Shown: positions 1,962 through 64,000 of the stretch, in pieces | Numbering within the stretch: the stretch's first letter is position 1 | Layout: the number at the start of each line of letters is the position of its first letter | Assembly: GCA_903900335.1 (NCBI GenBank) | Contig: CAIUMP010000044.1 | Location: 98,686 to 162,685, forward strand | Source of the DNA: an uncultured Ignavibacteriota bacterium | GTDB taxonomy: Bacteria > Bacteroidota > Ignavibacteria > Palsa-1295 | Length of the DNA stretch: 64,000 bases | Direction of reading: 5' to 3' | Notes under the pieces: model-generated | What the model saw: the letters and a program-made list of their open reading frames with translations, nothing else | What the model was told of the DNA's origin: nothing | Database searches by the model: none | Translations under genes and position numbers: made by a program

Positions 1962-3247
1962 TGGCCACCTCCTTCCCACAATCGGAGCCTCCCACCCGAC
2001 TCCGCTCTACTACTCCCCTTCCTATGATTCATTCCTCGTGTAACTCTCTCTCCAAGCAGCATACTGCGAAAATTGGCGTAGTCTGGTTTGCTCTTATGCT
2101 CTTCGCACTCGGAGCGTCAACGGCAGCCGCGATCCCCCGCTTCTCCCTGTTGACGGGCACGCGTTGCTCTGTCTGCCACTTCAACCCGCAAGGCAGCGGG
2201 TTGCGCACGCAACTTGGGTGGGAGATGATGAACGAGACCGGGCTACTCAAGTGGCATGATGTTTCGCTGGATACGTCAGGCATTAGCCCGACGAACGGGC
2301 TATTCGGCAACGTGCTCTTCCCGGGGTTTGATGGAAGATTGCAGCAGGTGCGGCTATCGCGTACAGGTGAGTCGAAGTTGATACCGATGCAGATGTCGGT
2401 AGGCCTTGGGTTGCAGTTTGGGCAGCAGCTTTCGCTCTCGACGAATGTCAACATCGCGAGTGTTGCGGAGCGCGCACGTGGTGGATCGCTCTATCCCGGT
2501 GAGACGGATTACGATCTCGCGTTGCAGTATCAGCCGGATGTCACACTTCCCTCTATCCGCGCCGGTATGATCGAACCAAGCTTTGGCGTGCGGCAGGATG
2601 ACCACACCATCTTCACCAACGAGGAGGCTGCGATACAAGGCACCGAGCTAATCCCCCCATACTACAACGAACTTGGTGTCGAAGTAACGTACGAAGGGAT
2701 GCGCTGGATAACGGTCAATGCCGGTGTCTTCAACTCATACAATCTCGCGCTGATCGACCCGACGATCGGCACGGTGAATTCCATGACGGACTTTTCGCAC
2801 CCGACGCTCGCGGCGCGCGTGATGTTCTGGCCGCAGTTGTTAGAGCAAGGGATCAATATGGAAGTCGGTGGTTCGGTTATTTCGAACGGCTCTTTCCGAT
2901 TGCTCAACGGCTTCGCCGGCTTCGGGCTGGCGGACAAGTCCTCCCTGTTCTTCGAAACGCTGTATGGCACGAACTCCGACCAGCGTATCATCCGCAATTT
3001 CAGTGTGATCGGCAGCTATGAACTTGCCGCGTGGCTGGCCGCCGAGTGGCGCTATGACTGGGGACAGACCGAACTCTATCCGAACATCGGGCTAAGCTTT
3101 GCGCAAGGCTTTCTTATTGGGTTGGAGTTCTTCCCCGCACCGTTTATCGAGATCCGCCCCGAGTATCGCGTCCTCCACAAAACGCCATACGGGTCGGACG
3201 GCACTTTCACCGGCCAATGGACCGGACAGATCCATGTGTTTTATTGA
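1961..3247 (+). CDS. Cyc2-like fused cytochrome-porin (outer-membrane beta-barrel with an N-terminal CXXCH haem motif)
   Basis: Signal peptide (VVWFALMLFALGASTAAA). Single CSVCH about 11 residues into the mature protein. About 400 aa with alternating hydrophobic beta-strand pattern and an aromatic girdle. C-terminal ...QIHVFY matches the OMP terminal signature. At 428 aa it is the right size for Cyc2 family iron oxidases. Alternative start at 2024 (MIHSS). Confidence 0.5.
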   Translation: MATSFPQSEPPTRLRSTTPLPMIHSSCNSLSKQHTAKIGVVWFALMLFALGASTAAAIPRFSLLTGTRCSVCHFNPQGSGLRTQLGWEMMNETGLLKWHDVSLDTSGISPTNGLFGNVLFPGFDGRLQQVRLSRTGESKLIPMQMSVGLGLQFGQQLSLSTNVNIASVAERARGGSLYPGETDYDLALQYQPDVTLPSIRAGMIEPSFGVRQDDHTIFTNEEAAIQGTELIPPYYNELGVEVTYEGMRWITVNAGVFNSYNLALIDPTIGTVNSMTDFSHPTLAARVMFWPQLLEQGINMEVGGSVISNGSFRLLNGFAGFGLADKSSLFFETLYGTNSDQRIIRNFSVIGSYELAAWLAAEWRYDWGQTELYPNIGLSFAQGFLIGLEFFPAPFIEIRPEYRVLHKTPYGSDGTFTGQWTGQIHVFY

Positions 3248-3253
3248 TCGCGG

Positions 3254-3469
3254 ATGAGCAGAGCATTTGTAAAGGAATCAGAGGGTGAATGGCTCGGAGA
3301 TGTTGCTCCGGAAATTGCCGCACTCGAGCGCTTCCTCACGCGTGAGAGTGGTGAGAAGATCTACCAACTTGAGTTGACCATCGAAACCGCAACAGGCCGC
3401 GAGATTCACGAGATGAACAACGGTGATCGCTATGCGCTGGATATGGATCGGCGGTGGCGGAAGCTTTAA
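3254..3469 (+). CDS. Small hypothetical protein (71 aa)
   Basis: ORF begins 7 nt after the Cyc2-like stop. No recognisable motifs. Confidence 0.25.
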   Translation: MSRAFVKESEGEWLGDVAPEIAALERFLTRESGEKIYQLELTIETATGREIHEMNNGDRYALDMDRRWRKL

Positions 3470-3625
3470 GAGCGCAGGGTTTGGGAAGCAGGCGCTTCCC
3501 GAACCCTGTCCAAAGCGCGGGGACGTCTGTCACGGGGATGATTGTCGAACTCCTCAGTCCCGATACGCACGAAGTGGAGTTGAGCGACGCGTCGTGCGAG
3601 GAGACTCGACCAATGCACTGCATCC

Positions 3626-3826
3626 TTATCTCAGGCCTGCGGGTTCGCTGAGATTAGCGGGTTTTGAATCGGATTGACGTCGTTGCTCTCGGGCGTATTT
3701 CTCACGGTTCGCTTTGATAATTTGGCTCAATCGCTTATGCTCCTCTTCGGTAAGGGGCGTACTTTGGACATAGATATCGAAATCGTCGAGTCGAGCAAAA
3801 TCAGGTGTTTTTTTGTGTCCCATCAA
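3626..3826 (-). CDS. Small hypothetical protein (66 aa), lysine/arginine-rich
   Basis: ORF overlaps the upstream 187-aa ORF by 26 nt, suggesting a two-gene unit. Local GC is lower than in the flanks. Confidence 0.3.
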   Translation of the reverse strand: MMGHKKTPDFARLDDFDIYVQSTPLTEEEHKRLSQIIKANREKYAREQRRQSDSKPANLSEPAGLR

Positions 3827-4364
3827 AATTCTCGCTATCGAAATCGTTGAAATATTGCCGTGTTAGAATAAGCGCTTCCGGTGTGTTTATCAACATCCGA
3901 ATGCCCCATAATAGTTGTGCTCCTATCGTCTCTTGGTAGTGAGGAATCAGAGCGGTTTTAGATTCGAATGCCACTGTGCCTCCATACCCGTTTTCGAAGG
4001 CCAGTTTAGATGCGAATGCAAAAAGATTACCGGGTACTCCGACAAAGAGCTTTTGTTGGCCTTTGTTGAATTCCGAACTCTCGATGAGGTGAACGAAGAC
4101 GTGATCCCCGAGGTCTTCGATGCTGATCAACCCCTGAATAATAGTCGGGTTCTCGCGGGTCGTCAATTTATAGACCTCCCGTTGCTGTTGGCGGAGTTCA
4201 AACGTCCAATCGAATTGCCACGCACCGTCGTCCAGCAATTTTGAGTCCGATGGATAAATTTGTTCGATAATCGTGTCGAATCTCTCACCGGAGATGCGGA
4301 GTTCGATAGACCTCGTGAGCTTATCGATTTTGACATTGAGACGGCTCGTTCGGGTGGTCTTCAT
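3801..4364 (-). CDS. Hypothetical protein (187 aa), possible acyltransferase-like fold
   Basis: ORF sits in a lower-GC stretch. Weak GNAT-like central segment (VGVPGNLFAFASKLAFENGYGG). No confident family call. Confidence 0.3.
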   Translation of the reverse strand: MKTTRTSRLNVKIDKLTRSIELRISGERFDTIIEQIYPSDSKLLDDGAWQFDWTFELRQQQREVYKLTTRENPTIIQGLISIEDLGDHVFVHLIESSEFNKGQQKLFVGVPGNLFAFASKLAFENGYGGTVAFESKTALIPHYQETIGAQLLWGIRMLINTPEALILTRQYFNDFDSENFDGTQKNT

Positions 4365-4716
4365 TGTTCAAAGTTAATATTTCTTGCCGGAAACCTTGTG
4401 AAATCCTTTCCATGCGTACCTGTCGCGGAATGCGAGCGGGATGTCGAGCGAGGTCGCTCGACTTACTCCAGCAATTCCGGGTCTTTGGAAATTGGGGGAA
4501 CCGCAAAATAATTATGGAAATCGCTTTCTGTCCCAAAGACAAAATTCCGTAAGTTATTGATTTCATTGAAGAGTTCATGAAGCACAAACCGCACAAACGA
4601 ATCGTGCACGTAATTTCAGGAGAGTGAGCACGGGTTTGCACAAAGACAACTTTCCAAGAAAACGTGTGCCTTTATCAAGCCCAAATCAAAAACACACGAA
4701 TTATAGCTTTCTCCCT

Positions 4717-4790
4717 GTCATTCCGAGCTGGCGAGGAATAGCGCGCGGAGGTGCTCCTTGACGAGGGATTCCTCGCAGGCTCGGAATGAC
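4717..4790. repeat. 74-bp imperfect palindrome (GTCATTCCGAGC-TGG-CGAGGAAT ... ATTCCTCG-CAG-GCTCGGAATGAC) in the atpD upstream region
   Basis: Arms are exact reverse complements (12+8 bp each side) around a GC-rich centre containing a smaller ggag/ctcc hairpin. Confidence 0.8.
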
Positions 4791-4810
4791 GTTTTCTGCG
4801 AGCGGCATGA

Positions 4811-6358
<1,548 letters not shown>

Positions 6359-6387
6359 GAGCGTTGTTGAAAGTTGCTTGCAAGGGA

Positions 6388-6420
6388 GCCGCTTCAGAAA
6401 TGAGGCGGCTTTTGAGTTTT
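6388..6420 (+). terminator. Rho-independent terminator after atpD
   Basis: 10-bp stem agccgcttca/tgaggcggct with GAAA loop, followed by TTTGAGTTTT. Confidence 0.7.
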
Positions 6421-6715
6421 GGGGAACTCGCCTCGGATCGATCTTAAGGTCACAAATATTTCCCCTTTGGTTTGTATTGGGTTGATTTGAGTAGGGACAG
6501 ATTTGTGCATAGTTTGTCGCGAACAATTGAGTTACGCCAACTGTCCGTTGAACATGCGGTGCTGTGGTGGCATCGTCTTAGGGTCAAGCGATTCTCGTAC
6601 GCTCCTCTATGAGCTTGGTGATCGGACATTAGGTCATGAGATACCCCTCCGTTGCATTGTAGCGCTGGGCTACATCTCATCGTCCATTCTATCAGCTATT
6701 GCGACTTGAGTACGC

Positions 6716-8026
6716 TTGCCCATCCACTCGAATGAAGTCAACGTCGATATTCAATACTTGGGGGGTGGAAGAGACATGGGAACTCGTAACTCGTTCATCG
6801 CGCATACCATCGGACTCGAACGGCAAGTGCCGACAATCCGACAAAGCGCAAGATCAGAATCTTTCCTCTATGCAAATCGGTACATAGCCTCCACAGCGGT
6901 GGGGGCGATCGTGTTCGCACCGATGGCATGGCACGTCGTGCTTGATCCTGTGCCGGGTTCGGACTTTAGCATGCATCTCGGCCTGGCAACGCGCATGTGG
7001 CAGGAAGGAGCCATCGGCCTTCCTCATTTCCTGTATCATTTTCTCATTCTGCTCATGTCCAACTGCATGGGCATGACTCTGAAACTGGCAAGTCTATTGC
7101 TGACAACGGCAGGGTTGGCTGCCATCCTGCCACTGTCCCAGCTTGTGATCTTCCGGGAGCGTGGCGGCCTGTCAGCCTTGTCAATTGTGCTCGTTACTTC
7201 TATCGCCTCATCCATCACAATTTGGACGATCCCGTCGCATCACCTCTATTTCGGCTATATCCCGCTTGCCGTTTACCACAGCCCAACGATGACACTCATG
7301 AAACCGCTGGCGCTGTGGAATTTCCTTCTCCTATCAAGAGGATTGACCGTGCGGATCAGCTCCGCCAGGGTACAAAGGTGGAGTGTTATTTCCCTCATTC
7401 TCTGTGGGCTTGCTAAACCAAGCTACGTCTTGATACTTTTGCCAGCTGCCATCGTGTTCGTCTGTATTCGAAAACTTCTCCGGGCGGAAGCTTCGTGGTG
7501 GTTCTTGCTTCACTGTGTGGTTGTTCCGAGTCTCGCTCTGTTGATATGGCAGTACTGTTTCACGTATCTTTCAAATTCCGCCTTCTATTGCGAGAGGGGT
7601 GAGACGGGAATCGAGTTTGCACCGTTGCTGGCAGTCAGGACGGTTAGTGGCAATCTGCTGATCAAACTCCTTGGTTCCATCGCCTTCCCGCTCAGCGTGT
7701 CCTGCGTGCATTGGAATCGGCTACGTGCGTATCCTGAATACAACTTTGCTCTGCTGCTCTTCAGCTTCGGTGCGCTGTGCTTTTACCTACTTGCCGAACG
7801 AGGCATGCATTTGACCCATCTAAATTTTCTTTGGAGCGCTTCAATCGGCCTGTTGCTCTGGTTTTTGTGCTGTGTTCGAATTCTTGTTGTAGAGACCAGA
7901 AACTCGGAGCGCGAGATGGGGTCGATGGGTACCCTCATTTGCTGTTTCGTGCTAGCCCTGCATATTATCTGCGGGGCGCTATGGTACGCGGTCGAAGTTA
8001 CCCGCTCGTTTGCTGCTGGATGGTGA
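6716..8026 (+). CDS. Polytopic membrane protein of unknown function (about 10 or more TM helices)
   Basis: Long ORF dominated by hydrophobic helices. Start uncertain; internal Met candidates at 6776 and 6929. Confidence 0.35.
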   Translation: MPIHSNEVNVDIQYLGGGRDMGTRNSFIAHTIGLERQVPTIRQSARSESFLYANRYIASTAVGAIVFAPMAWHVVLDPVPGSDFSMHLGLATRMWQEGAIGLPHFLYHFLILLMSNCMGMTLKLASLLLTTAGLAAILPLSQLVIFRERGGLSALSIVLVTSIASSITIWTIPSHHLYFGYIPLAVYHSPTMTLMKPLALWNFLLLSRGLTVRISSARVQRWSVISLILCGLAKPSYVLILLPAAIVFVCIRKLLRAEASWWFLLHCVVVPSLALLIWQYCFTYLSNSAFYCERGETGIEFAPLLAVRTVSGNLLIKLLGSIAFPLSVSCVHWNRLRAYPEYNFALLLFSFGALCFYLLAERGMHLTHLNFLWSASIGLLLWFLCCVRILVVETRNSEREMGSMGTLICCFVLALHIICGALWYAVEVTRSFAAGW

Positions 8027-9819
8027 GGATGCGTGCTCGGCATGAGGAGTGCCCTGATTGCTTTGCTGCACGGAGCAAATCCACTACCCAAACGGAACTG
8101 ACAACACAGCTCGAAAATCCATGCGGCGTGATCGTTGATGTGCACTCTCGCGCCGGCGACAAACTGTTCTTCATTCGTGTTGAAGTTGGTATGCCATCAT
8201 TTGCTACTAGCCCATCTTACCAGAATCCCGCTCTCCACCGCTTCGCAAGTGAGCTGACTCATCAGCTTGGGCTGAGTAAGGAGTTGGAGCGCCTCCATAC
8301 TCAAGTAGCCAGGATCCCACTCTTCGTCACATTGTACTCGGATGAGACGCTCTATGATGTGCTCGCCTACTGGAAGACACTTCGGGAGTCGTACGATATC
8401 CAATCCACATATATCACCGCGTTGAGTGCCTGGAATTCACGCGACTCCATTAAACGTACCGTTGCTTCCTTGAGGGTTGCCGATCTGCTGGAGCGGGTTA
8501 GTTGCTGGGAAGGGGCCATTGAAGTGCTCCGCGAACAGATCGCTGATTGCGTTGAGCGTGGAGATAGAATTGTTGAGGCCAAGTCACGAGCCGCTCTTGC
8601 AAAGTTATTCGGTCGGCGAGCGCAGCATAAACTAGCGCTGATCGAATATGAGTTGGCAAAGCAAGTCTTCCAGGAGTTTGGCGACAACGAAGGGATCAGA
8701 GCGGTTCTTGAGGGCATGGCAAACGTCCGGTTGAATCTCGGACAGATGGAAGAGGCGCAAGCGCACTGGCGTCAGTTGAAGGTCCTTTGCACGGATGCGG
8801 GTGATGAGAGCGGCCTTGCGTCGCTCTATCACAACAGTGCTACTCTGGACTTGTATCAGGGCAAGTTTGAGGTAGCTTTAGAGAATCTCGATCGAGCCAT
8901 GGAGATAAATAGGCGGACTGGCAATCGTACTTGGCTCGGCAATAATGCCAGCTCCCTCGCTTCCGCTTACTACTTTCAAGGTGACTTCCGAAAGTCCTTA
9001 ATCGAATTCACCCGCAGCAAAGAGATTCGAGAAGGTCTTGGAGACCGTCAAGGAGCCGCTGCAGCGATGGGAAATATTGCAGGGGTGTACTACGAATTGG
9101 GTGAGTTCGATTTGGCGCTTGAGAGTTCACGAAAGAACTACGCTATCCGAGTTGAGATCGGTGATCGTGATGGCGCGTCTAGCGCGATACTAAATATGGG
9201 CAACATCCTCACGGAACTTGGTGACTGGGAAGCAGCGATAAAGAGCATTGTCATCGCCGAGGCGGAAAATCGGGACACGGGCGCACGTGTCTCACTTGCG
9301 TATAGCTTATTTGGGGCTGCCTTATCGTTTTACAAGGTTGTTCCCAACCACACTGCAATGCCTGAATGGCTGCCACTTCATGTAACCGGTGCGAATCCCG
9401 ACAATTGGCGTGTGCGGACTCTCGCGCTTTCAGAAGCAAAGGCACGGGAATGCGTCGAACTCTCCAAGGAGATGAACCTGAGCGGCCCTCTCTTTTCTGC
9501 TCAAGTCCATTTGGCGACCATTGCCAATGAGGAAGCAGACTATCCTGGTGCATACGCAATGTTGGAGGCACTGCTCCACGGCAACTCCGACGAAGCCCAA
9601 CTTGCCAACATACACTTTGAGCTTTGGGGTACTTTTTCCAGGGCTGCTGAACGAGCGGTGCTATTGCTCGACGATCATGAAGCAGATGCGGCAGCGAAAT
9701 TGCATCATTTCGACGAAGCTCTTTCACGCTACACCCAACTTTGTGAGAACTCGGCAAGCATCGAGCATAGGAGACGACTCAATGAGCTGGAGAGCAAGCG
9801 TCATATGTTCGCAGAGTAA
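8020..9819 (+). CDS. TPR-repeat protein
   Basis: Multiple 34-aa TPR-like repeats (e.g. ...ASAYYFQGDFRKSLIEF..., ...AGVYYELGEFDLALES...). The track ORF starts at 7777 inside the upstream gene. Start chosen at the first Met after the membrane-protein stop (8020/8029). Confidence 0.45.
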   Translation: MVRMRARHEECPDCFAARSKSTTQTELTTQLENPCGVIVDVHSRAGDKLFFIRVEVGMPSFATSPSYQNPALHRFASELTHQLGLSKELERLHTQVARIPLFVTLYSDETLYDVLAYWKTLRESYDIQSTYITALSAWNSRDSIKRTVASLRVADLLERVSCWEGAIEVLREQIADCVERGDRIVEAKSRAALAKLFGRRAQHKLALIEYELAKQVFQEFGDNEGIRAVLEGMANVRLNLGQMEEAQAHWRQLKVLCTDAGDESGLASLYHNSATLDLYQGKFEVALENLDRAMEINRRTGNRTWLGNNASSLASAYYFQGDFRKSLIEFTRSKEIREGLGDRQGAAAAMGNIAGVYYELGEFDLALESSRKNYAIRVEIGDRDGASSAILNMGNILTELGDWEAAIKSIVIAEAENRDTGARVSLAYSLFGAALSFYKVVPNHTAMPEWLPLHVTGANPDNWRVRTLALSEAKARECVELSKEMNLSGPLFSAQVHLATIANEEADYPGAYAMLEALLHGNSDEAQLANIHFELWGTFSRAAERAVLLLDDHEADAAAKLHHFDEALSRYTQLCENSASIEHRRRLNELESKRHMFAE

Positions 9820-16114: not shown

Positions 16115-16576
16115 ATGATCCGGTCTGTTACTGAGGCGGATGCTGATGTTTGGGAACACCTGCGCGAGTTGTTCTGGCCGACTGATGCAGGAGAGCATGG
16201 CAGGGAGAAAGGCGAACATTCAAGAGACATTGCGAAGTACTTTAATGGGGATCGAAGAGAGCCCGCCGAGGTGCTGCTCGCCATCAATCATGCGGGGCGG
16301 GTCGTTGGGTTCACAGAACTATCGATTCGGAATATTGTCGATGGGTGCTCGACTGGGCGTGTTGCATATCTGGAAGGTTGGTTCGTTGAGGAAGAGGAGC
16401 GCGGAAAGGGATTCGGCGCAGCTCTGATGCGCGCAAGTGAGGATTGGGGACGAGCGCAAGGCTGTACGGAATTCGCATCGGATACGGAGATCACAAACGA
16501 GTTGAGTATTTCGATGCACACACGTCTGGGTTTTGAAGAGACGGGTCGCGTTGCGCAGTTTAGGAAAGAACTCTGA
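16115..16576 (+). CDS. GNAT N-acetyltransferase, AAC(6')-like
   Basis: N-terminal ...VWEHLRELFWP... and GNAT motif A (EEERGKGFGAALM), reminiscent of aminoglycoside 6'-N-acetyltransferases. Confidence 0.6.
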   Translation: MIRSVTEADADVWEHLRELFWPTDAGEHGREKGEHSRDIAKYFNGDRREPAEVLLAINHAGRVVGFTELSIRNIVDGCSTGRVAYLEGWFVEEEERGKGFGAALMRASEDWGRAQGCTEFASDTEITNELSISMHTRLGFEETGRVAQFRKEL

Positions 16577-16679
16577 GGGATCTACAAACGGGGAAGCGCT
16601 CTGGTGGGCGCGCCGAACGCGCCACATCTTGGGATTTGTCATCCCTCGTTACTCGTTACCCGTCCACCTAACGCAGAGT

Positions 16680-18410
16680 ATGCCCGACATCTTTATTTCC
16701 TACTCCCGCAAAGACTCCGCGCAAGCACTTGGGCTTGCTGATCGACTGCGTGCATCTGGGATGGATGTGTGGATCGATCAACATGGTATTGAAGCGGCAA
16801 CCGCCTGGTCGAAGGAGATCGTTGACGCGATCGACACTGCCAATGTGTTCATCCTGCTGCTCTCGGCTTCCTCGATCGGGAGTGTTAATGTCGTGCGTGA
16901 GCTTGCCATCGCCAGTGAGTCCGATAAGCCCATTTTGCCCATCGAACTCGAATCGGTTGTGCTGCCAAGCGAGTTCAAGTACCAACTTTCGGGTGTGCAG
17001 CGCGCACACTATTCTGATTTTGCGGGAATACTTCGAGCCGTAACAAGACTCATTACCTCGCAGAGGAATCCGTCAGATTCCCCTATACCGTCCCAGCATG
17101 AACCGAGTCTCGAGCCTAATGATACGCGAAAGAGCCTCATGGTTCTTCCTTTCGAAGATCTCTCCCCCGGTGCCGACAATGCCTGGTTCGCAGATGGATT
17201 GATGGGCGAGTTGATTTCATCACTCTCTCACATCAAATCCTTACGTCTCATAGACCAGCGCACATCGAGAGACTTTAAGGATGTAAAAGTTAAGCTTACT
17301 GATATTGCGAAGGAGTACGCTATTCGATACTTCATCGAAGGCTCTGTTCGCAAATTTGGTGACCAGATCAAGGTCTCTCTGACACTCCTCGATATAATAA
17401 CGGGGGATCATCTCTGGCAGTACTCTCATCGCGGGGATTTCTCTGACATCTTCGATGTGCAGGAGCAGCTTGCAGCGAAGACGGTAGAGGGGTTGCGACT
17501 TCATCTCACGTCTGACGAAGAAGTAAAACTAAAGGAGCGCGGGACAGACAATGCCGAAGCATACGAGCTGTACCTCAAAGGCAATGAGTATTATGATCGG
17601 CATACGAAAGCGACGTTTGGATATGCACTCTCCGTCTTTCGTGATGCTATTGATCTCGATCCGAAATTCGCTGAAGCCTACGTCGGCGCGGCGGACACAC
17701 TTTCAGAGACCTGGCGTGTATATGACCGTAATCCAGCCATGCTCGAAGAGGCTGAGCAACTCCTTGAGACTGCTCGAGGGCTTAAGCCATCGCTGACACG
17801 TATCCTTGATATTCTCGCTCACATTCGGCTTCGGCAGGGGCGATTTGAAGAAGCGGAGGAGTTGGCGAAGAAGTTTGTCGAGTTGGAGCCGGAGAGTCGT
17901 CTCAGCCATTTTACCCTCGGCTTTTTGTACATGGAAATCGGGCAACCCACCCGCGCGATTCCCGCCTTCGAGGCGTGTATTCGTGTTCAGCCCGACTACC
18001 TCACCGCGCGCTGGAATCTCGTGCTAACGTTCGATCGCGCTGGTGATACTGCGGGACGAATTCGAGCGGCCGAAGAAGCGATTCCACTCTTCGAAAAGCG
18101 ACTCCGCCAATTCCCGGATGACGAGGACACGCGATGCCAACTACCGAATCTACTTTTCCACGCTGGACGCAAGGTGGAGGCAAGCGTGGCGCTGGCGACC
18201 GTCACGGGACTAAAAGACGCGGGTTCATTCTATAATCTTGCGTGTCTGGCGTCGAATCTCGGAAAACACGAACTTGCAGTTCGCTACCTCAGGAACGCAC
18301 TGGAAGGTGGGTTCGCCCACAAAGAGATCTTTCGTGTAGATCCTGATCTTGAGGCGATTCGGAATCGGGATGACTTTCGAGAACTAATGGCAGAATTTCA
18401 CGTACACTAG
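16680..18410 (+). CDS. TIR-domain protein with central TolB-N-like domain and C-terminal TPR repeats
   Basis: Begins MPDIFISYSRKDS...WIDQ (bacterial TIR_2). Central LMVLPFEDLSP...WFADGLMGEL...RYFIEGSVRKFGDQIKVSLTLLDIITGDHLW block. Then TPRs. Track ORF starts at 16533, but the paralogue at 60977..62752 starts at the equivalent MPDIF. Confidence 0.65.
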   Translation: MPDIFISYSRKDSAQALGLADRLRASGMDVWIDQHGIEAATAWSKEIVDAIDTANVFILLLSASSIGSVNVVRELAIASESDKPILPIELESVVLPSEFKYQLSGVQRAHYSDFAGILRAVTRLITSQRNPSDSPIPSQHEPSLEPNDTRKSLMVLPFEDLSPGADNAWFADGLMGELISSLSHIKSLRLIDQRTSRDFKDVKVKLTDIAKEYAIRYFIEGSVRKFGDQIKVSLTLLDIITGDHLWQYSHRGDFSDIFDVQEQLAAKTVEGLRLHLTSDEEVKLKERGTDNAEAYELYLKGNEYYDRHTKATFGYALSVFRDAIDLDPKFAEAYVGAADTLSETWRVYDRNPAMLEEAEQLLETARGLKPSLTRILDILAHIRLRQGRFEEAEELAKKFVELEPESRLSHFTLGFLYMEIGQPTRAIPAFEACIRVQPDYLTARWNLVLTFDRAGDTAGRIRAAEEAIPLFEKRLRQFPDDEDTRCQLPNLLFHAGRKVEASVALATVTGLKDAGSFYNLACLASNLGKHELAVRYLRNALEGGFAHKEIFRVDPDLEAIRNRDDFRELMAEFHVH

Positions 18411-19040: not shown

Positions 19041-19577
19041 ATGGCAACCATTCCGGGCACACTTCTCGTGAGTTGCATCGTAGTTCTTACGTTTTGGGGC
19101 TGCTCTACGTCGAACAGGGCGCTCCCCGTCGTGCCGTCAGTAGACCTTGAGAAGTACTCCGGGCAGTGGTACGAAATCATGCGGCTACCGCACGGTTTCG
19201 AATCAGGTTTGAAGTGCGTAACTGCAACTTACTCCCTCAAGCCCAACGGTGACATCAACGTGTTGAACTCAGGGCACAAGATCTACGAACCTTCGCAAGT
19301 TAAGACCGCGACCGGGACAGCATGGATACCCGACGCTTCCGAGCCAGCAAAATTAAAAGTACGATTCTTTTGGCCGTTCTCGGGCAATTACTGGATCATT
19401 GCGCTCGACCCTAATTACCGCCATGTTATGATCGGGGATCCATCGAGAGAGTACCTCTGGATCTTATGTCGAGAGAAAATGCTCCCAGACTCAACTCTTC
19501 AGTTGCTACTCTCACAGGCAACCGCGCAGGGTTTCGACGTCTCCAAGCTCGAACGCGTCTCCCAAGATTGCAATTGA
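19041..19577 (+). CDS. blc: Bacterial lipocalin (Blc-like) lipoprotein
   Basis: Lipobox FWGCS. Lipocalin SCR1 motif YSGQWYEIMRLP. Confidence 0.7.
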   Translation: MATIPGTLLVSCIVVLTFWGCSTSNRALPVVPSVDLEKYSGQWYEIMRLPHGFESGLKCVTATYSLKPNGDINVLNSGHKIYEPSQVKTATGTAWIPDASEPAKLKVRFFWPFSGNYWIIALDPNYRHVMIGDPSREYLWILCREKMLPDSTLQLLLSQATAQGFDVSKLERVSQDCN

Positions 19578-22992: not shown

Positions 22993-25900
22993 ATGCGATT
23001 GCCAAAACACCTAATGAGCGATGAACGGGAACGTGTGCGTGTGTATATTATGATGAAACGAGTAGTTTGTCTTTGCCTTGTCTTTCTGCTTCAGCAATGG
23101 TCGTTCTCTCGCTCCGCTCACGCACAGGATCAGCACCTGTTCGATAGTCTTCATGCAGCCTTCGCGTTTGCAACCCAGGACACCACCCGCAGTGACATTC
23201 TCGGCAAGCTCGCTGGTGCGTTAGAGGACATCGATACGGCGACCGCGATGAGCTACGCGACGCAGTCGATGCATTTCGCCGAAGCTGCGCACGACAGTCG
23301 CCGCATTGCACGATTCGACTTGTTCCTTGCACATCGTTACTCGAACGCGGGCCTTTATGATAGCGCTCGCTCACGTTTACTCGATGCGCTGAAGCATGCC
23401 GAAGAGCTGAACGACTCCACTATCATGGCGACGGTCTTCAGTCAATTGGGTCGGAATGACATGGAGGTTGGGAAGTATCAGGAAGCCCTCAACTACTTCC
23501 TAAAGGATCTTGACTTTGCATTGCATCGTCGAGACGCCGCAGCGATCGGAAATGCCTACAACGATCTCGGCTGCATCTACTTGTATCAGTTCATGCCGAC
23601 AAATGCATTACGCTATCTCCGGCTTGCATTGCAATACGCAGAGCGCACGAAAGACACGCGCTTGGCCGCCCACATTTACAACAATATCGGGCTTAGCTTC
23701 AACGATACGATCGGCGTCATTCTGCATTACAAAGAGAATCTAGACAGTTCTCTGCTCTATTTCCGCAAGGCGGTTGCACTGTATTCTGAGACAGACGAGC
23801 ATTACACTCGTGCCCGCGTACTCGGAAATATGGGCGATATTTTCGAAAGGCAACACCTGCTGGACAGTGCCCTCTCGTATGATCGGCAGGCGATCTACAT
23901 GCACGAGAGTGTTGGGATCGCATCTACCTACATGGCAGCAGCGTATGCACAGCTGGGCAACCTATTCCTACGAATTCGCCATACCGATAGCGCATTCCAC
24001 TACTTGCTATTGGCCCGTGACATTGACCAACGGATCGGAGCGCGTCGGGGGTTATACTACCATTATATTGATCTTTCGAGAGCCTACGCTCAATCGGGCG
24101 ACTATAAGCAGGCATACGAGTACCTCGGGCTCGGTGCATCGCTGCACGACTCTCTATACAATGTAGATAAGAGCCGTGTGTTCTCCGAGATGGAGACAAA
24201 GTACCAGACCAGCAAGAAGGAGAAGGAAATTGCCGCCCAGGATCAGGAGATCCGTCAGCAGCGAGTAGTAAACTACGCGGTGATGGGAATCGCCGGGGTG
24301 TTGTGTCTTGTCGCACTCATCATTTATCGTAATGATCGGCACAAGCAGCGGGTCAACCGTGAGCTTGCCAAGGCAAAGGAACGCGCGGAAGCTAGCGAGT
24401 TGCTCGAGAAGCAATTCCTCGCGAATATGAGTCACGAGATTCGAACGCCGATGAACGCCGTGCTGGGGATGACTACGCTCCTGCTCGAAACCACTCTGAC
24501 CACAAAGCAACGCGATTATCTGGAAGCAATTGCCGCTTCGGCCGATAACCTGCTCATCATTATTAACGACATTCTTGATCTCTCCAAACTTCAAGCTGGA
24601 AAAATGGAGTTGGAGCGTATCCCATTCCGATTACACGACGTAACTCGTCATGTCGTGGACATGATGCATTTCAAAGCGGAGGCCAAGCACCTCGATCTCA
24701 CAGAGGATTTTGACGAGTCCATGCCAGCTGTTGTTATCGGTGATCCCGCGAGACTCACTCAGATACTGGTGAATTTGGCAGGCAATGCGATCAAATTCAC
24801 CCCGAATGGCTCCGTGACGATCCACATATCAGCAACCGCGGTAGGCGCAGATCGTAAAATGAATGTCCGAATCGCCGTTCGCGACACTGGTATCGGTATT
24901 GCTGCCGAGAAGCTCTCCACCATTTTCGACTCCTTCTCACAGGCGGATGCCGAGACTTCGCGAAAGTACGGCGGTACCGGCCTGGGTCTCGCAATATCCA
25001 GAACGCTCGTTGAGCTGCAGGGCGGAAGCATCGGCGTGACCAGCGAACTCGGCAAAGGATCGGAATTCGCGTTCACAATACCTTACGAGGTTACCAGCGA
25101 GGAAGTGCTGACGGAGAGTGAAACACCACCTGTTACCGAGACCATCTCATTAGAGGGCCTCCGCGTCCTACTGGTGGAGGACAACGAGTATAATCAGATC
25201 GTCCTTGCGGACACGCTCCGCAATGTCATTCCTGACGTCGCGCTAGAGATCGCATCAAACGGCCGCGAAGCCATCGCGATCATTCACACGCTTCCATTCG
25301 ACATCGTCCTCATGGATGTTCAGATGCCGGAAATGGATGGAATCGAAGCAACGAAGTATATCCGGGCCCATTTGGGCCGCGGCAAACGGGATGTGCCTAT
25401 CATTGCGCTAACCGCGAGCGTGATTAAGTCCGAAATCGACCGCTGCTTCGAAGCGGGAATGAATGATTACGTTCCTAAGCCTTTCCGAAAGGATGAACTT
25501 TTGAGCGTCATCGCGAAATATTACAAGGGGCAGCCTGGGCGTGCTCCTGCAATCCCTGCGCATGCACCCGCACCTGCCGGTCCGACGGTAGTTCCGGAGG
25601 CGAAACCGGAGACTCCTAAGGCGAAGCCGGAGACTCCTAAGGCGAAACCCGTGAGCTCGGAGCCCGTACCAATTTCAGCTGCGCCGGCACCAAAGCCACC
25701 AGAACCGACCGAAACTACTTCAGCTATGCCACAACCGGAGAAGCCATCCAGTCCTGTCGCCGATCTTACTGCACTCTCAGACATCACTGGTGGTGATGCG
25801 CAGCAGTTAAAGAAGTACATTAAGATGTTCTTGGATGGCGTTCCAGGGCAACTCGAGACGGTCGCGGTCGCGCTTGAGGCTAACGATTACGATAGTGCTC

Positions 25901-26085
25901 GAAGAAGGATGCATGCAATGAAACCGCATCTGAAATTTATGGGTATGAAGGTCGCTGCCGGATTTGCCGACTCGATCGAGCAACTCTGCGCTGAGCAACG
26001 CGAACCGGAACGCATCAATCATGAATTTGCGCAGGTCAAGCAACAGTGTGAGTGGGCGTTCGAGGAATTGAAGGCGAAGCTGTAG
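22993..26085 (+). CDS. Hybrid sensor histidine kinase/response regulator with TPR sensor region, Pro/Lys-rich linker and C-terminal Hpt domain
   Basis: TPR-like N-terminus. TM helix (VMGIAGVLCLVALIIY). H-box SHEIRTPMNAVLGM. HATPase (DTGIGI...GGTGLGLAIS). Receiver (VLLVEDNEYNQ...DIVLMDVQMPEMDG). Hpt (HAMKPHLKFMGM). Probable start at 23050 (MMKRVV). Confidence 0.85.
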   Translation: MRLPKHLMSDERERVRVYIMMKRVVCLCLVFLLQQWSFSRSAHAQDQHLFDSLHAAFAFATQDTTRSDILGKLAGALEDIDTATAMSYATQSMHFAEAAHDSRRIARFDLFLAHRYSNAGLYDSARSRLLDALKHAEELNDSTIMATVFSQLGRNDMEVGKYQEALNYFLKDLDFALHRRDAAAIGNAYNDLGCIYLYQFMPTNALRYLRLALQYAERTKDTRLAAHIYNNIGLSFNDTIGVILHYKENLDSSLLYFRKAVALYSETDEHYTRARVLGNMGDIFERQHLLDSALSYDRQAIYMHESVGIASTYMAAAYAQLGNLFLRIRHTDSAFHYLLLARDIDQRIGARRGLYYHYIDLSRAYAQSGDYKQAYEYLGLGASLHDSLYNVDKSRVFSEMETKYQTSKKEKEIAAQDQEIRQQRVVNYAVMGIAGVLCLVALIIYRNDRHKQRVNRELAKAKERAEASELLEKQFLANMSHEIRTPMNAVLGMTTLLLETTLTTKQRDYLEAIAASADNLLIIINDILDLSKLQAGKMELERIPFRLHDVTRHVVDMMHFKAEAKHLDLTEDFDESMPAVVIGDPARLTQILVNLAGNAIKFTPNGSVTIHISATAVGADRKMNVRIAVRDTGIGIAAEKLSTIFDSFSQADAETSRKYGGTGLGLAISRTLVELQGGSIGVTSELGKGSEFAFTIPYEVTSEEVLTESETPPVTETISLEGLRVLLVEDNEYNQIVLADTLRNVIPDVALEIASNGREAIAIIHTLPFDIVLMDVQMPEMDGIEATKYIRAHLGRGKRDVPIIALTASVIKSEIDRCFEAGMNDYVPKPFRKDELLSVIAKYYKGQPGRAPAIPAHAPAPAGPTVVPEAKPETPKAKPETPKAKPVSSEPVPISAAPAPKPPEPTETTSAMPQPEKPSSPVADLTALSDITGGDAQQLKKYIKMFLDGVPGQLETVAVALEANDYDSARRRMHAMKPHLKFMGMKVAAGFADSIEQLCAEQREPERINHEFAQVKQQCEWAFEELKAKL
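25600..25641 (+). repeat. Tandem 21-bp coding repeat (gcgaa[ag]ccggagactcctaag x2) encoding (AKPETPK)x2 in the kinase linker
   Basis: Two adjacent near-identical 21-mers in the sequence. Confidence 0.8.
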
Positions 26086-60976: not shown

Positions 60977-62752
60977 TTAAGCCTGGGGAAGCTCCACGAC
61001 AGAAGCTTCACGCCTTTCAATATCCTCGATCAGTTGCTTGTACTCCGGCATTTCGAGAATAGGGCCTTCGAACATCCGGAAGAGATCATAGCGTTGGAAT
61101 CCCAAGTCAAAGGCCTTGCGGACGGCCATGATCGCTTCATCCGGGCGATCCATTTGCACCCAGAGGCAACCGATGTTGAATTCCGTCATCGCGTCGCGGA
61201 TGTTGTGCAGCGAGCGAAGGTAGGTTGTCGCCCGCTCTACGTCCCCGGACCAATGCAACAGAACCGCGTAGTCTACTTTTCCTCGCTCATCGTCGGGTCG
61301 CAGACGCAGAAGGCGTTCGTATTTTGGCAACCCCGCGTTCGACCAGAACTTTAACTTGTCCCACTCCTGCGCCTTTTCGCAGCATTGACAAAGATTGAAG
61401 TAGGTGCGCGCTGCGTTGGGATCGAGCGCCAAGCACGCTTCGAACGGTGGGATCGCCAGATCGAACTGAAAACTCTCCGCATAGACAAAACCCAGGACGC
61501 TGTGACCATCCGCGCTCGTTGGCTCGCGCCGTATATACTCGTTCGCATGCGTGACAGCAGCGGCGATGTCCCCTCGGGCAAGCGCGATACGACTGCGCGT
61601 TGCTAGTGCCTCCGAGAGTGAAGGCTTCAGCGTGAGTGCCGTTCGCACCAACGCTTCTGCGTCATCGAGCAGCACGTTGCTATGATCATACGAACGGTAA
61701 AGCAACGCGAGGCAATTTGCTTTATGATTATACGCTTCAGCAAAGTCAACATCCAACTTGAGCGCTTCGGACTCCAGCGCGATAGCGTGTTCCAATCCTT
61801 CCTTCGAACCACCGCGTTGATATTCGCGGGCCTTGAGGTAGAGCTCGTAGGCTTCCGCATTTTCGGTCGACTTTGCGTTGAGAAGCGATCTACGCTCCTC
61901 GGAGCTAAGCGTAAGCGTTAGCCCGTCCACTACTTTTGCCGCAACTGCCTCCTGAATTTCGAAGATCTCCGAAAAGACGCCTTTGTGAGAGTCCTGCCAG
62001 AGATACTCGCCGCGCTCGATGTCGAGCAATGCTGCAGAGATCTTGATCTGTTCGCCGAATTTTCGAACGGAGCCTTCGATGAAGTAACGGACGTCCAGCT
62101 CGCGAGCAATCTCTGAAGTCTTCAGACTTATGTTCTTGAACTCTCGAGATGTTTTTTGGTCTATGAGCCGAAGCGATTTGATACGGCTGAGCGCACCAAT
62201 CAGCTCGGACATGAGTCCATCTGCAAACCACTCATTGTCCTTCGTAGGAGACAGATCTTCGAATGGAAGCACCATGAGCGATTTCCGCTGGTCAGACGAA
62301 CGTGCGCTGTTAGGATATTGGGTTTGTTTTGCGCTGCGATCTGAGTCCGTTGCCGGAGTTGGAGCGAAGCTTCCGACGCCGAGCTTCGTTAATGCTCGTA
62401 GGATTCCATCGAAGTTCTCGATCTTGACCCGTTGAAGGCCTGCGAGTTGGTAGTGGAAGTCATCTGTTACTTCGACTTTTTCCAATTCGATCGGGACAAT
62501 CGAACGCCTGAACTGGCTTGCTAGAGAAACTTCCTTTATGACATTCCGCGATGCGAGCGAGCGCGAGGAAAGCAAAAGACAAAACGCCCAGCACTCCTTG
62601 ATCGCACCCACGATCTCTTTGCCCCAATTCGTGGCCGCCTCGATGCCGGTCTGATCCATCCATATCTCCATTCCAGCAGCACGTAGTTTCTCGGCAAGCG
62701 CGATGGCGTGCGGAGAATCTTTGCGGGAATAGGAGATAAAAATGTCAGGCAT
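60977..62752 (-). CDS. TIR-domain protein with TolB-N-like domain and TPR repeats (paralogue of 16680..18410)
   Basis: MPDIFISYSRKDS...WMDQ TIR N-terminus. SLMVLPFEDLSP...WFADGLMSEL...RYFIEGSVRKFGEQIKISAALLDIERGEYLW block. C-terminal TPRs. About 45-50 % identity by eye to the first copy across domains. Confidence 0.65.
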   Translation of the reverse strand: MPDIFISYSRKDSPHAIALAEKLRAAGMEIWMDQTGIEAATNWGKEIVGAIKECWAFCLLLSSRSLASRNVIKEVSLASQFRRSIVPIELEKVEVTDDFHYQLAGLQRVKIENFDGILRALTKLGVGSFAPTPATDSDRSAKQTQYPNSARSSDQRKSLMVLPFEDLSPTKDNEWFADGLMSELIGALSRIKSLRLIDQKTSREFKNISLKTSEIARELDVRYFIEGSVRKFGEQIKISAALLDIERGEYLWQDSHKGVFSEIFEIQEAVAAKVVDGLTLTLSSEERRSLLNAKSTENAEAYELYLKAREYQRGGSKEGLEHAIALESEALKLDVDFAEAYNHKANCLALLYRSYDHSNVLLDDAEALVRTALTLKPSLSEALATRSRIALARGDIAAAVTHANEYIRREPTSADGHSVLGFVYAESFQFDLAIPPFEACLALDPNAARTYFNLCQCCEKAQEWDKLKFWSNAGLPKYERLLRLRPDDERGKVDYAVLLHWSGDVERATTYLRSLHNIRDAMTEFNIGCLWVQMDRPDEAIMAVRKAFDLGFQRYDLFRMFEGPILEMPEYKQLIEDIERREASVVELPQA

Positions 62753-63164
62753 CAGTTGAGAGTAGAAGAGACCGGATATCGCTCCGAAATCCTGTTGCGA
62801 TTCTCAGAGCGGCGACGGCGTCCTTTTCATTGGCCCATTCACCGGGGTACCGAAACTCTGCGGCGTACTGTGTTAGGCCGGCGAATGAGCTTCGCCACGC
62901 CTCCCATATCGGTTGCTTGTCAATGGCGAGATCGAGCAGGTCTTCGAGGTCGTGAGTTTTAGGAAACCGAATATCGTGCTCCTGCAAATAGCCTTTGAGA
63001 TATTTCTCCACACACTGCTGTGAAAGAAAGCAGACCAAATCTACGCTCAATCGTTCGGCATGTGCGTCGGAAAAATCGGACTCCGCCTTCTTAATCCACT
63101 CTTCGGTGATCTGCTTCATACAGTGTGCTGCCTCGATGAAGGATGTCTCCAATGAATGAATCAC
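62745..63164 (-). CDS. HEPN-domain protein (putative toxin of a HEPN/MNT pair)
   Basis: All-alpha roughly 130-aa protein downstream of and overlapping a minimal nucleotidyltransferase gene. Probable start at 63119 (MKQITEEW). Confidence 0.5.
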   Translation of the reverse strand: MIHSLETSFIEAAHCMKQITEEWIKKAESDFSDAHAERLSVDLVCFLSQQCVEKYLKGYLQEHDIRFPKTHDLEDLLDLAIDKQPIWEAWRSSFAGLTQYAAEFRYPGEWANEKDAVAALRIATGFRSDIRSLLLSTDA

Positions 63165-63420
63165 CGATTTCTAAACGGTGAGCGATGTCCACCGGTCTTC
63201 TGACGAACAGGTCGAGCGGAAATGGGCGACGGATCGCGCTGCGGATTTCGATCGCCTTCTCCACATTACGCTCGGCGTGATCCATAATGACTAAAAGATC
63301 CACATCGGAATCGGGGGTAGGCGTCCCATAGGCATACGAGCCGAAGAGGATGATCTTCCGCGGGGAGAATTGCTGCGCAACTGCACGGACGAATGTGTCG
63401 ATGTCGGCTCTGCTGGTCAT
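63091..63420 (-). CDS. Minimal nucleotidyltransferase (MNT) domain protein (putative antitoxin)
   Basis: ILFGSYAYGTPTPDSDVDLLVI matches the GSx9-13Dx(D/E) NTase motif. Confidence 0.65.
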   Translation of the reverse strand: MTSRADIDTFVRAVAQQFSPRKIILFGSYAYGTPTPDSDVDLLVIMDHAERNVEKAIEIRSAIRRPFPLDLFVRRPVDIAHRLEIGDSFIGDILHRGSTLYEADHRRVD

Positions 63421-63503: not shown

Positions 63504-64000
63504 TCAGGCATGCGCAGTCGCCTCCTCCGTGTTTGACGCAGCCGCCGCGAGTTGCTCGGCTTCAATCTTCTCCACCATCAGTTTTACTTCTTCGTATTCG
63601 GGGGTTTGTCTCAACTTGCCGATTCCGGTATTATCCTCATCATTGAGGAACGAGCGCATCCCCTCAAGATTTACGAAACCTGATTCAATAGCTTTGCGGA
63701 ATGTCTTTAGTGATGATTCATAGTCCTTCAGTTCAGCTCGCAAGACTGCCATGTTAAATAGAGAATTCCCGTCCCGGACATTTGACAACAAACCCAATAC
63801 TTTGAGCGCATCTTCATCTCGCCCGAGCCAATGCAGAAGCATTGCTTGACAAACAATCCATGCTTCCTCGTCAGGATGAATCTTGATGTACCGCTCAAGC
63901 ACTGGGAGCGCAACCGAAGCCCAGTAAATAACGCGTTGTGGTTCATTAGCCGTATGGCAGGAAAGTGCTACGTTCACGAGGCTTGGCAAATAGTCTGACT
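63504..64000 (-). CDS. TPR-containing C-terminal fragment related to the TIR/TPR paralogues (gene continues beyond window edge)
   Basis: C-terminus (FNMAVLRAELKDYESSLKTFRKAIESGFVNLEGMRSFLNDED...) parallels the C-terminus of 16680..18410 (YNLACLASNLGKHELAVRYLRNALEGGFAHKEIFRVDPDLEAIRNRDDF). N-terminus would lie past position 64000. Confidence 0.4.
   Translation of the reverse strand, partial: SDYLPSLVNVALSCHTANEPQRVIYWASVALPVLERYIKIHPDEEAWIVCQAMLLHWLGRDEDALKVLGLLSNVRDGNSLFNMAVLRAELKDYESSLKTFRKAIESGFVNLEGMRSFLNDEDNTGIGKLRQTPEYEEVKLMVEKIEAEQLAAAASNTEEATAHA

Follow-up and report, generated by a model that had tools for sequence, protein, structure and literature searches.

To our knowledge, bacterial TIR proteins have been studied almost only within mobile antiphage systems. 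TIR-II of E. coli is a single protein with TIR and tetratricopeptide repeat (TPR) parts, which acts against phages and whose defence depends on the TIR active site (PMC11350192). An ATPase accompanies only ~30% of TIR-II systems and is thus not obligatory, and these systems are widespread, horizontally distributed and also present in Caudoviricetes (PMC11350192). Here we analyzed a 64,000-nucleotide stretch of DNA from an uncultured Ignavibacteriota bacterium (contig CAIUMP010000044.1, positions 98,686 to 162,685; hereafter the window), in which one gene, copy 1, encodes a TIR domain, a TolB-N-like domain and a TPR array in succession. Judged by architecture, and with TIR-II taken from its published description, copy 1 resembles TIR-II in that an N-terminal TIR and C-terminal TPRs are joined in one polypeptide with no required ATPase, and TIR-II would be its closest functional analogue. 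It follows from the TIR-II precedent that a TIR-TPR protein without a nucleoside triphosphatase (NTPase) module can be a complete sensor-effector. By contrast, no TolB-N-like domain has been reported for TIR-II, whereas the family of copy 1 carries one, is restricted to one lineage, occurs in arrays and is absent from phage and viral collections. A first-pass annotation of the window had stated that the architecture was not a characterized system; this holds insofar as PADLOC matched only the TIR part, but not insofar as TIR-II is a published single-protein TIR and TPR system (PMC11350192). BcTir/Tpr (bioRxiv 10.1101/2023.05.26.542521) and ThsI, a TPR-bearing Thoeris effector (bioRxiv 10.64898/2025.12.03.692087), represent a related theme in different architectures. 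In literature searches covering TIR with TolB, COG5616 and Kapabacteria, neither the TIR / TolB-N-like / TPR combination nor its arrays were found described.

Copy 1 is divided as follows, with positions given in the window and residues in amino acids (aa).

16680..18410, plus strand: copy 1, complete TIR / TolB-N-like / TPR gene (ATG start, 576 aa plus stop)
16689..17054, plus strand: TIR domain, aa 4-125 (Pfam TIR_2 and PDB profile matches)
16899..16901, plus strand: E74 codon GAG, putative catalytic Glu in the motif S68-V-N70-V-V-R-E74 (codon checked)
17055..17123, plus strand: hydrophilic, disordered linker, aa 126-148 (not a membrane segment)
17124..17504, plus strand: TolB-N-like alpha/beta domain, aa 149-275 (model, Foldseek and motif)
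17505..18407, plus strand: helical hinge and TPR array, aa 276-576 (Pfam TPR models)

Pfam TIR_2 (PF13676) matched aa 4-115 with an E value of 2.2e-20 (73.8 bits; cutoff 28), and many Pfam TPR models matched between about aa 316 and 545, the array terminating in a "TPR end-of-group" domain at aa 517-570 (NCBIfam TPR_END_plus, 66.8 bits; cutoff 32). No Pfam model matched aa 149-275. In the full-length AlphaFold model (mean predicted local distance difference test, pLDDT, of 90.5), a TIR fold at aa 1-128 was followed by an alpha/beta domain at aa 149-275 and by helical repeats running unbroken to the C-terminus, while pLDDT fell below 50 at aa 131-144 of the linker. A database protein (P0001) is 100% identical to copy 1, homologs were scored (n=1163), and each of the top 120 is full-length and shares the architecture of copy 1, with identities of 46-75%. 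The three-part open reading frame (ORF) is thereby confirmed as real, far beyond chance, and the architecture read in the first-pass annotation was borne out by Pfam, AlphaFold and Foldseek. The same holds for the absence of an NTPase module: no P-loop or NTPase domain (NACHT, NB-ARC or similar) was matched in copy 1 by Pfam, NCBIfam or PADLOC, and the ~150 residues that separate the TIR from the TPRs consist of the linker and the TolB-N-like fold. Since none of 64 family members contained a transmembrane-like segment (a 19-residue Kyte-Doolittle window of at least 1.9), the copy 1 protein is expected to be soluble and cytoplasmic.

To place the putative active site, the TIR profile of the family was compared with the PDB, where it matched Cat1, SARM1, AbTIR, TIR-APAZ and further TIR chains (E 1e-9 to 1e-5). 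In the profile-to-PDB alignment, E74 aligned with E642 of SARM1 and, in Cat1, with the Glu that ends the WCWDE motif, the family motif S-x-N-V-x-x-E lining up with K-D-W-V-H-K-E642 of SARM1 and S-D-W-C-W-D-E of Cat1. E74 was invariant in 64/64 relatives and in all 16 sequences of an alignment made from 14 array genes and the two full-length window copies; in the second of these, copy 2, the corresponding codon is GAA at 62531-62533. The Glu is thus present in both copies, so that its loss, which the first-pass annotation had named as a ground for refutation, cannot be held against the prediction. E74 putatively occupies the catalytic position, and by sequence the copy 1 TIR is probably an NAD+-cleaving domain. 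The BB-loop was predicted at approximately aa 33-44, and pLDDT below 50 at aa 37-41 of the full-length model is consistent with a loop predicted to be flexible.

Copy 1 shares a TIR_2-type domain and a catalytic-type Glu with Thoeris ThsB, SPARTA TIR-APAZ, SAVED-TIR and the STAND/Avs TIRs, but it has no ThsA partner, APAZ, Argonaute, SAVED domain or NTPase. PADLOC models of the ThsB, TIR-APAZ, SAVED-TIR and STAND/Avs families covered only aa 2-115 (E 6e-11 to 6e-3). As a Thoeris ThsB, copy 1 scored below threshold with both Pfam ThsB_TIR (17.1 bits; cutoff 21.2) and NCBIfam ThcB4 (33.6 bits; cutoff 220). A ThsA-type effector (SIR2, Macro or SLOG) was found neither beside copies 1 and 2 nor among the top flanking families in a census of 93 flanking ORFs, called by length, at 22 family loci. 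Assignment to SPARTA failed likewise, the PADLOC Aga_TIR models matching only aa 4-102 and no pAgo neighbour being present.

We then considered the module that lies behind the TIR. The middle domain, modelled separately as aa 143-318 (AlphaFold, pLDDT 87), matched in Foldseek the TolB N-terminal domain, GNA1162, PelC, LpoB, FlgT and the CadC periplasmic domain (E 4e-6 to 3e-5), confirming the label TolB-N-like. Its conserved motif is LPFEDLSP..DN.WFADG..E.I ... RYFIEGSVRKFG. When the full-length model was aligned with the CadC sensor domain (3ly7, 3lya), TMt reached 0.63-0.67 over ~305 columns, the alignment spanning the TolB-N-like domain and the helices after it; at the sequence level, NCBIfam models of HilA/EilA (aa 146-444, E 2e-8) and CadC (aa 170-445, E 3e-5) matched far below their cutoffs, and the full-length family profile matched only generic TPR proteins in the PDB. 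Copy 1 thus resembles CadC and HilA/EilA in its two-subdomain TolB-N-like plus helical/TPR module but differs from them in its TIR output and in having no winged-helix or Trans_reg_C domain, and is not a member of that group. The periplasmic domain of CadC is its signal-sensing part; in copy 1 the module is cytoplasmic, as in HilA.

The module, recognized by the motifs LPF..S....(Y/W)F.DG..E.I and EGSVR, is also fused to other outputs: to Guanylate_cyc in a Chitinophagaceae metagenome-assembled genome, to Trans_reg_C in an alphaproteobacterial one, and in hundreds of rhizobial "adenylate/guanylate cyclase" genes, at up to 12 places per replicon. These shared domains and the shared motif bear out the first-pass link of the TolB-N-like module to adenylate-cyclase-type regulators; together with TPRs, the module occurs in cyclase-type and winged-helix proteins alike. 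The class III cyclase / TolB-N-like / TPR proteins of rhizobia and Chitinophagaceae have in common with copy 1 a homologous module with the same motif, multiple copies and an N-terminal dimerising output, but their output is a cAMP/cGMP cyclase rather than a TIR, copy 1 has no Guanylate_cyc match, a domain that the module homolog L023 does have, and module identity is only ~27-35%. A TIR version on a Novosphingobium megaplasmid is 26% identical and has a hydrophobic segment ahead of the module, so its sensor is probably periplasmic. We read the TolB-N-like and TPR parts together as a portable sensor/oligomerisation unit placed on N-terminal outputs that need dimerisation.

Several more distant proteins were noted alongside. 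In Novosphingobium sp. RL4 (NZ_CP141945.1), positions 2329-7935 of locus L082 encode a TIR / hydrophobic segment / TolB-N-like / TPR protein two genes away from the gene of a caspase-like protease with a CHAT domain. Such domains typify conflict systems, and the TIR protein was the only relative seen with both a putative membrane-spanning topology and a conflict-type neighbour. P0121, P0127, P0146, P0153 and others are 1000-2837 aa long and contain 2-7 separate query matches, the best lying in the TolB-N-like region. The family profile also matched, as a TIR, the N-terminus of a solved 824-aa "tetratricopeptide repeat protein" in the PDB (9m0n / 9umd; E 0.003), which may be a TIR-TPR protein already characterized. 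A Nitrospinia locus (L027, tblastn to aa 2-212) considered as a TIR, TolB-N-like and Sel1 member of the family was dropped, as alignment showed its middle part to be Lys/Glu-rich and not alignable to the TolB-N-like domain.

The main feature of the family, which lay outside the view of the first-pass annotation, is its organization in large tandem arrays of paralogs. Among the best 80 loci, taken with one genome per species, the full architecture occurred only in metagenome-assembled genomes labelled Kapaibacterium, Ignavibacteriota or Bacteroidota; all relatives in the family come from such assemblies, and copies per genome are a lower bound. Those of the top homologs that have a name carry "TIR domain-containing protein [Candidatus Kapabacteria]" or, in JGI, "adenylate cyclase" or "TolB-like protein". 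Because the Guanylate_cyc domain is absent, the JGI name "adenylate cyclase" was probably carried over through the shared module. Family genes very often lie head-to-tail on one strand, as pairs, as a run of three and as runs of at least five, these run lengths including partial copies at contig ends. One array (L084, 8230-21740) comprises at least 8 consecutive paralogs and adjoins groES/groEL, and a second of 5 genes (L085/L086; L085 6510-15388) lies on the same 1.79-Mb contig, which holds at least 13 family copies in total. Members of the arrays are 48-83% identical to one another.

The junctions within the arrays are of one kind. Adjacent genes overlap by exactly 8 nucleotides (A-ATG-NCT-GA), the upstream TGA lying inside the downstream Met-(Pro/Ser/Ala)-Asp codons, and the conservation of this overlap indicates co-transcription and probably translational coupling. 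The 5-gene array immediately precedes a lipocalin gene, which shares 63% identity with window positions 19041-19577. Given this shared neighbour, copy 1 seems to represent, as a single gene, a locus with five copies in another genome.

To compare how the parts of the protein evolve, we calculated pairwise identities for 64 members, which were 66% for the TolB-N-like domain, 58% for the TIR, 43% for the TPRs and 19% for the linker. The TolB-N-like domain is thus the most conserved part of the protein, and the TPR region the most variable apart from the short linker. Omega (NG86) was 0.02-0.08 for the TolB-N-like domain, 0.04-0.2 for the TIR and 0.3-0.44 for the TPRs, the values being pairwise and confounded by recombination. 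Such purifying selection on all domains indicates that the genes are functional. Synonymous divergence (dS) within one paralog pair differed up to ten-fold between domains; between L084_1 and L084_5 it was 0.09 in the TolB-N-like domain and 1.34 in the TPRs. This discordance between domains indicates that array genes have exchanged sequence, by mosaic gene conversion or by shuffling of domains. By analogy only, the arrays recall plant TIR-NLR clusters in their tandem paralogs, conserved TIR, faster-evolving repeat sensor and mosaic or gene-conversion signatures. They differ from these clusters in having no NB-ARC/NTPase, TPRs instead of leucine-rich repeats, a bacterial setting and operon-like overlapping frames, and no evolutionary link is claimed.

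The first-pass annotation had proposed a sensor and an effector in a single polypeptide, which stands as a reasonable reading with a mechanism that we infer as follows. Copy 1 would be a self-contained cytoplasmic sensor-effector, whose variable TPR surface, perhaps along with the conserved TolB-N-like domain, would bind a protein, peptide or small-molecule cue. Binding would lead the module to dimerise or to assemble into a higher order, and this assembly would juxtapose the N-terminal TIRs, so that the BB-loop of one could complete the active site of its neighbour and NAD+ would be cleaved. For SARM1, AbTIR and plant TIRs it is established that the domains become active in NAD+ cleavage by assembling into an oligomer. 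The exchange of the module onto outputs that are active only as dimers, namely class III cyclases and winged helices of the OmpR type, fits such an assembly mechanism. As to biological role, we favour, tentatively and short of calling it probable, an immune-like panel of intracellular receptors forming one diversified repertoire, which would arrest growth by depleting NAD+ or by making an NAD-derived signal, because of the TPR diversification, the gene conversion, the variation in array size and the precedent of TIR-II.

The genomic setting weighs against an immune-like role on several counts. The window is core chromosome, with genes for ATP synthase beta, Rho, the glycine-cleavage P protein, ribosomal protein L19 and pyruvate:ferredoxin oxidoreductase. 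No partner recurred in the 93 ORFs of the census, where a single restriction-modification gene was seen and where the commonest families were type IX secretion system sorting tails, FAD oxidases, M16 peptidases and LexA. At the array loci (L083-L086), the neighbours annotated by Pfam are housekeeping genes, the arrays standing beside groESL, mnmE/mnmG and the lipocalin gene rather than in defence islands. No full-length relative was found in phage records or in IMG/VR viral contigs, and a plasmid search made with aa 1-315 only returned module-only matches except for the 26%-identical TIR-bearing Novosphingobium relative. The confinement to one lineage looks like vertical descent and not like horizontal mobility, and the neighbourhood showed no receptor for a signal made by the TIR. 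The first-pass annotation had allowed that the proteins might prove to be widespread housekeeping signalling proteins with no defence association; half of this was observed, in that no defence association was found, whereas a housekeeping role was not shown.

The same setting would suit housekeeping or environmental signalling, in which each paralog senses a cue of its own and the TIR makes an NAD-derived messenger or tunes NAD+. We regard this as possible though doubtful. It agrees with the core-genome context, the lineage-wide distribution, the housekeeping neighbours and the absence of the family from the phage and viral collections, and it draws on the module itself, which is common to Guanylate_cyc and Trans_reg_C proteins and to the HilA/CadC regulators and which, in rhizobial replicons with up to 12 cyclase copies, already underlies multi-copy sensing families. 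However, no precedent for non-immune TIR signalling in bacteria was found in the literature searched, and no SLOG, Macro, SAVED or ThsA-like messenger receptor recurred beside the arrays. Moreover, the faster evolution of the TPRs, the mosaic gene conversion and the variation in array size resemble receptor diversification more than a set of fixed sensors.

A further point against the immune-like panel, in that it presupposes an enzyme, comes from the putative active site. N70, nearly invariant and kept in at least 90% of members, replaces the Trp found four residues before the Glu in SARM1 (W638) and Cat1, and this change makes NADase activity and its product uncertain. The missing Trp would also be in keeping with a purely structural role, in which the coupled paralogs co-assemble into a large cytoplasmic hetero-oligomeric scaffold, the TIR serves assembly without catalysis, as in animal adaptor TIRs, and the TolB-N-like domain forms rings or oligomers. 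The 8-nucleotide overlaps, which imply that as many as 8 or more paralogs are expressed together in a coupled manner, and the ring formation of PelC and CsgG, structural relatives of the middle domain, are compatible with such a scaffold. On the other hand, the Glu and ~14 further residues of the TIR do not vary among paralogs with only 45-50% identity, which is hard to explain without an active site, and the TIR profile found its best PDB matches in the active enzymes Cat1, SARM1, AbTIR and TIR-APAZ. Because the active-site residues are invariant, we consider the scaffold improbable and retain the immune-like receptor panel as the favoured reading.

Besides copy 1, the window contains two further family members, with a toxin-antitoxin-like MNT/HEPN gene pair (62745-63420) between them.

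60977..62752, minus strand: copy 2, full-length paralog, 591 aa (tblastn, 46% identity over aa 1-553)
62745-63164, minus strand: HEPN gene (Pfam HEPN)
63091-63420, minus strand: MNT-type nucleotidyltransferase (Pfam NTP_transf_2)
63504..64000, minus strand: copy 3, C-terminal TPR part (164 aa) of a further paralog (tblastn to aa 439-552 of copy 1, E 3.6e-11)

Copy 2 is the second copy to which the first-pass annotation had alluded, and its existence is thus substantiated. Copy 3 shows weak TPR matches, and its gene extends past the window end, with the TIR part outside the window. The HEPN stop overlaps the copy 2 start by the same kind of 8-nucleotide junction (ATGCCTGA) that is seen between array paralogs, and the MNT/HEPN pair is possibly co-transcribed with copy 2. 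The pair lies directly upstream of the copy 1 ortholog at locus L001 (9333-10008; 65% identity for MNT and ~70% for HEPN), and a more distant pair is located ~6 kb from the 5-gene array (L086, 20009-20711). Blastp did not find it at the other 21 Kapaibacteria-like loci screened, and the MNT/HEPN pair was rejected as an obligatory partner, being present at three loci only. The MNT protein weakly matched the PADLOC candidate PDC-S09.

Immediate neighbours of copy 2 are TetR and HEPN/MNT genes, and those of copy 1 are GNAT, HlyD, SRPBCC and lipocalin genes. The first of the copy 1 neighbours had been proposed to be functionally linked to it.

16115-16576, plus strand: GNAT gene (NCBIfam AAC(6') group E aminoglycoside 6'-N-acetyltransferase model, 136.1 bits; cutoff 140)

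The GNAT and TIR genes lie 103 bp apart on the same strand and could in principle form one two-gene system. To see whether the adjacency is conserved, synteny was compared with P0002, the 75%-identical ortholog at locus L001, where a GNAT gene is again upstream. However, the adjacency recurs only at L001, and there the MNT/HEPN pair intervenes before the TIR gene; copies 2 and 3 and the L083-L086 arrays have no GNAT neighbour, and the 25 Pfam families seen most often in the 93 ORFs flanking 22 other loci included no acetyltransferase. In addition, the GNAT protein is a homolog of AAC(6')-type aminoglycoside acetyltransferases. Since the adjacency is not conserved, the two-gene system is effectively refuted and very improbable, and we rejected the proposed link. 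The GNAT gene thus gives this environmental Bacteroidota a homolog, close to threshold in score, of a resistance-type enzyme. The 103-bp gap contains a perfect 6-bp all-G/C hairpin, GGCGCG-CGAA-CGCGCC (16608-16623, plus strand), with no T-run after it; scans for sigma-70 promoters and terminators gave nothing above background and did not call this hairpin.

Two other genes were noted in passing. At L001, positions 1-1928 belong to a gene for a 1066-aa DUF4062 and TPR protein located ~8 kb upstream of the TIR gene; DUF4062 has reportedly been renamed the NIR NADase domain in a 2026 preprint. No counterpart of it was found in the window, 7777-9819 being only 24% identical over the TPR part and 6716-8026 being rejected because it encodes a hydrophobic, probably polytopic membrane protein. 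Further along the window, 22993-26085 (plus strand) encodes a 1030-aa hybrid histidine kinase whose N-terminal repeats are TPR-like and in which a tandem peptide repeat rich in Pro and Lys (AKPETPKAKPETPKAKP) separates the receiver and Hpt domains.

The family differs from the TIR systems studied so far in that a TIR that keeps its Glu is placed on the sensor module of CadC, HilA and the rhizobial cyclases, without an NTPase, in many core-genome copies joined by a fixed overlap junction. For annotation, this means that the JGI label "adenylate cyclase" on many members is probably a mis-annotation. For the organisms, we would advance a broader proposal only with considerable doubt, namely that Kapaibacteriaceae-like Bacteroidota keep at core loci a germline repertoire of at least a dozen NTPase-less TIR receptors, in coupled arrays whose members diversify through divergence of the TPRs and through gene conversion, and which may form hetero-oligomeric NADase complexes. 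Such a repertoire would be either a prokaryotic counterpart of TIR-NLR clusters with a CadC-type sensor or the first bacterial non-immune NAD-messenger network. If the proteins are true NADases, they would offer a simple system for learning how a repeat sensor alone gates TIR assembly, and they would show whether TIR enzymes act beyond phage defence.

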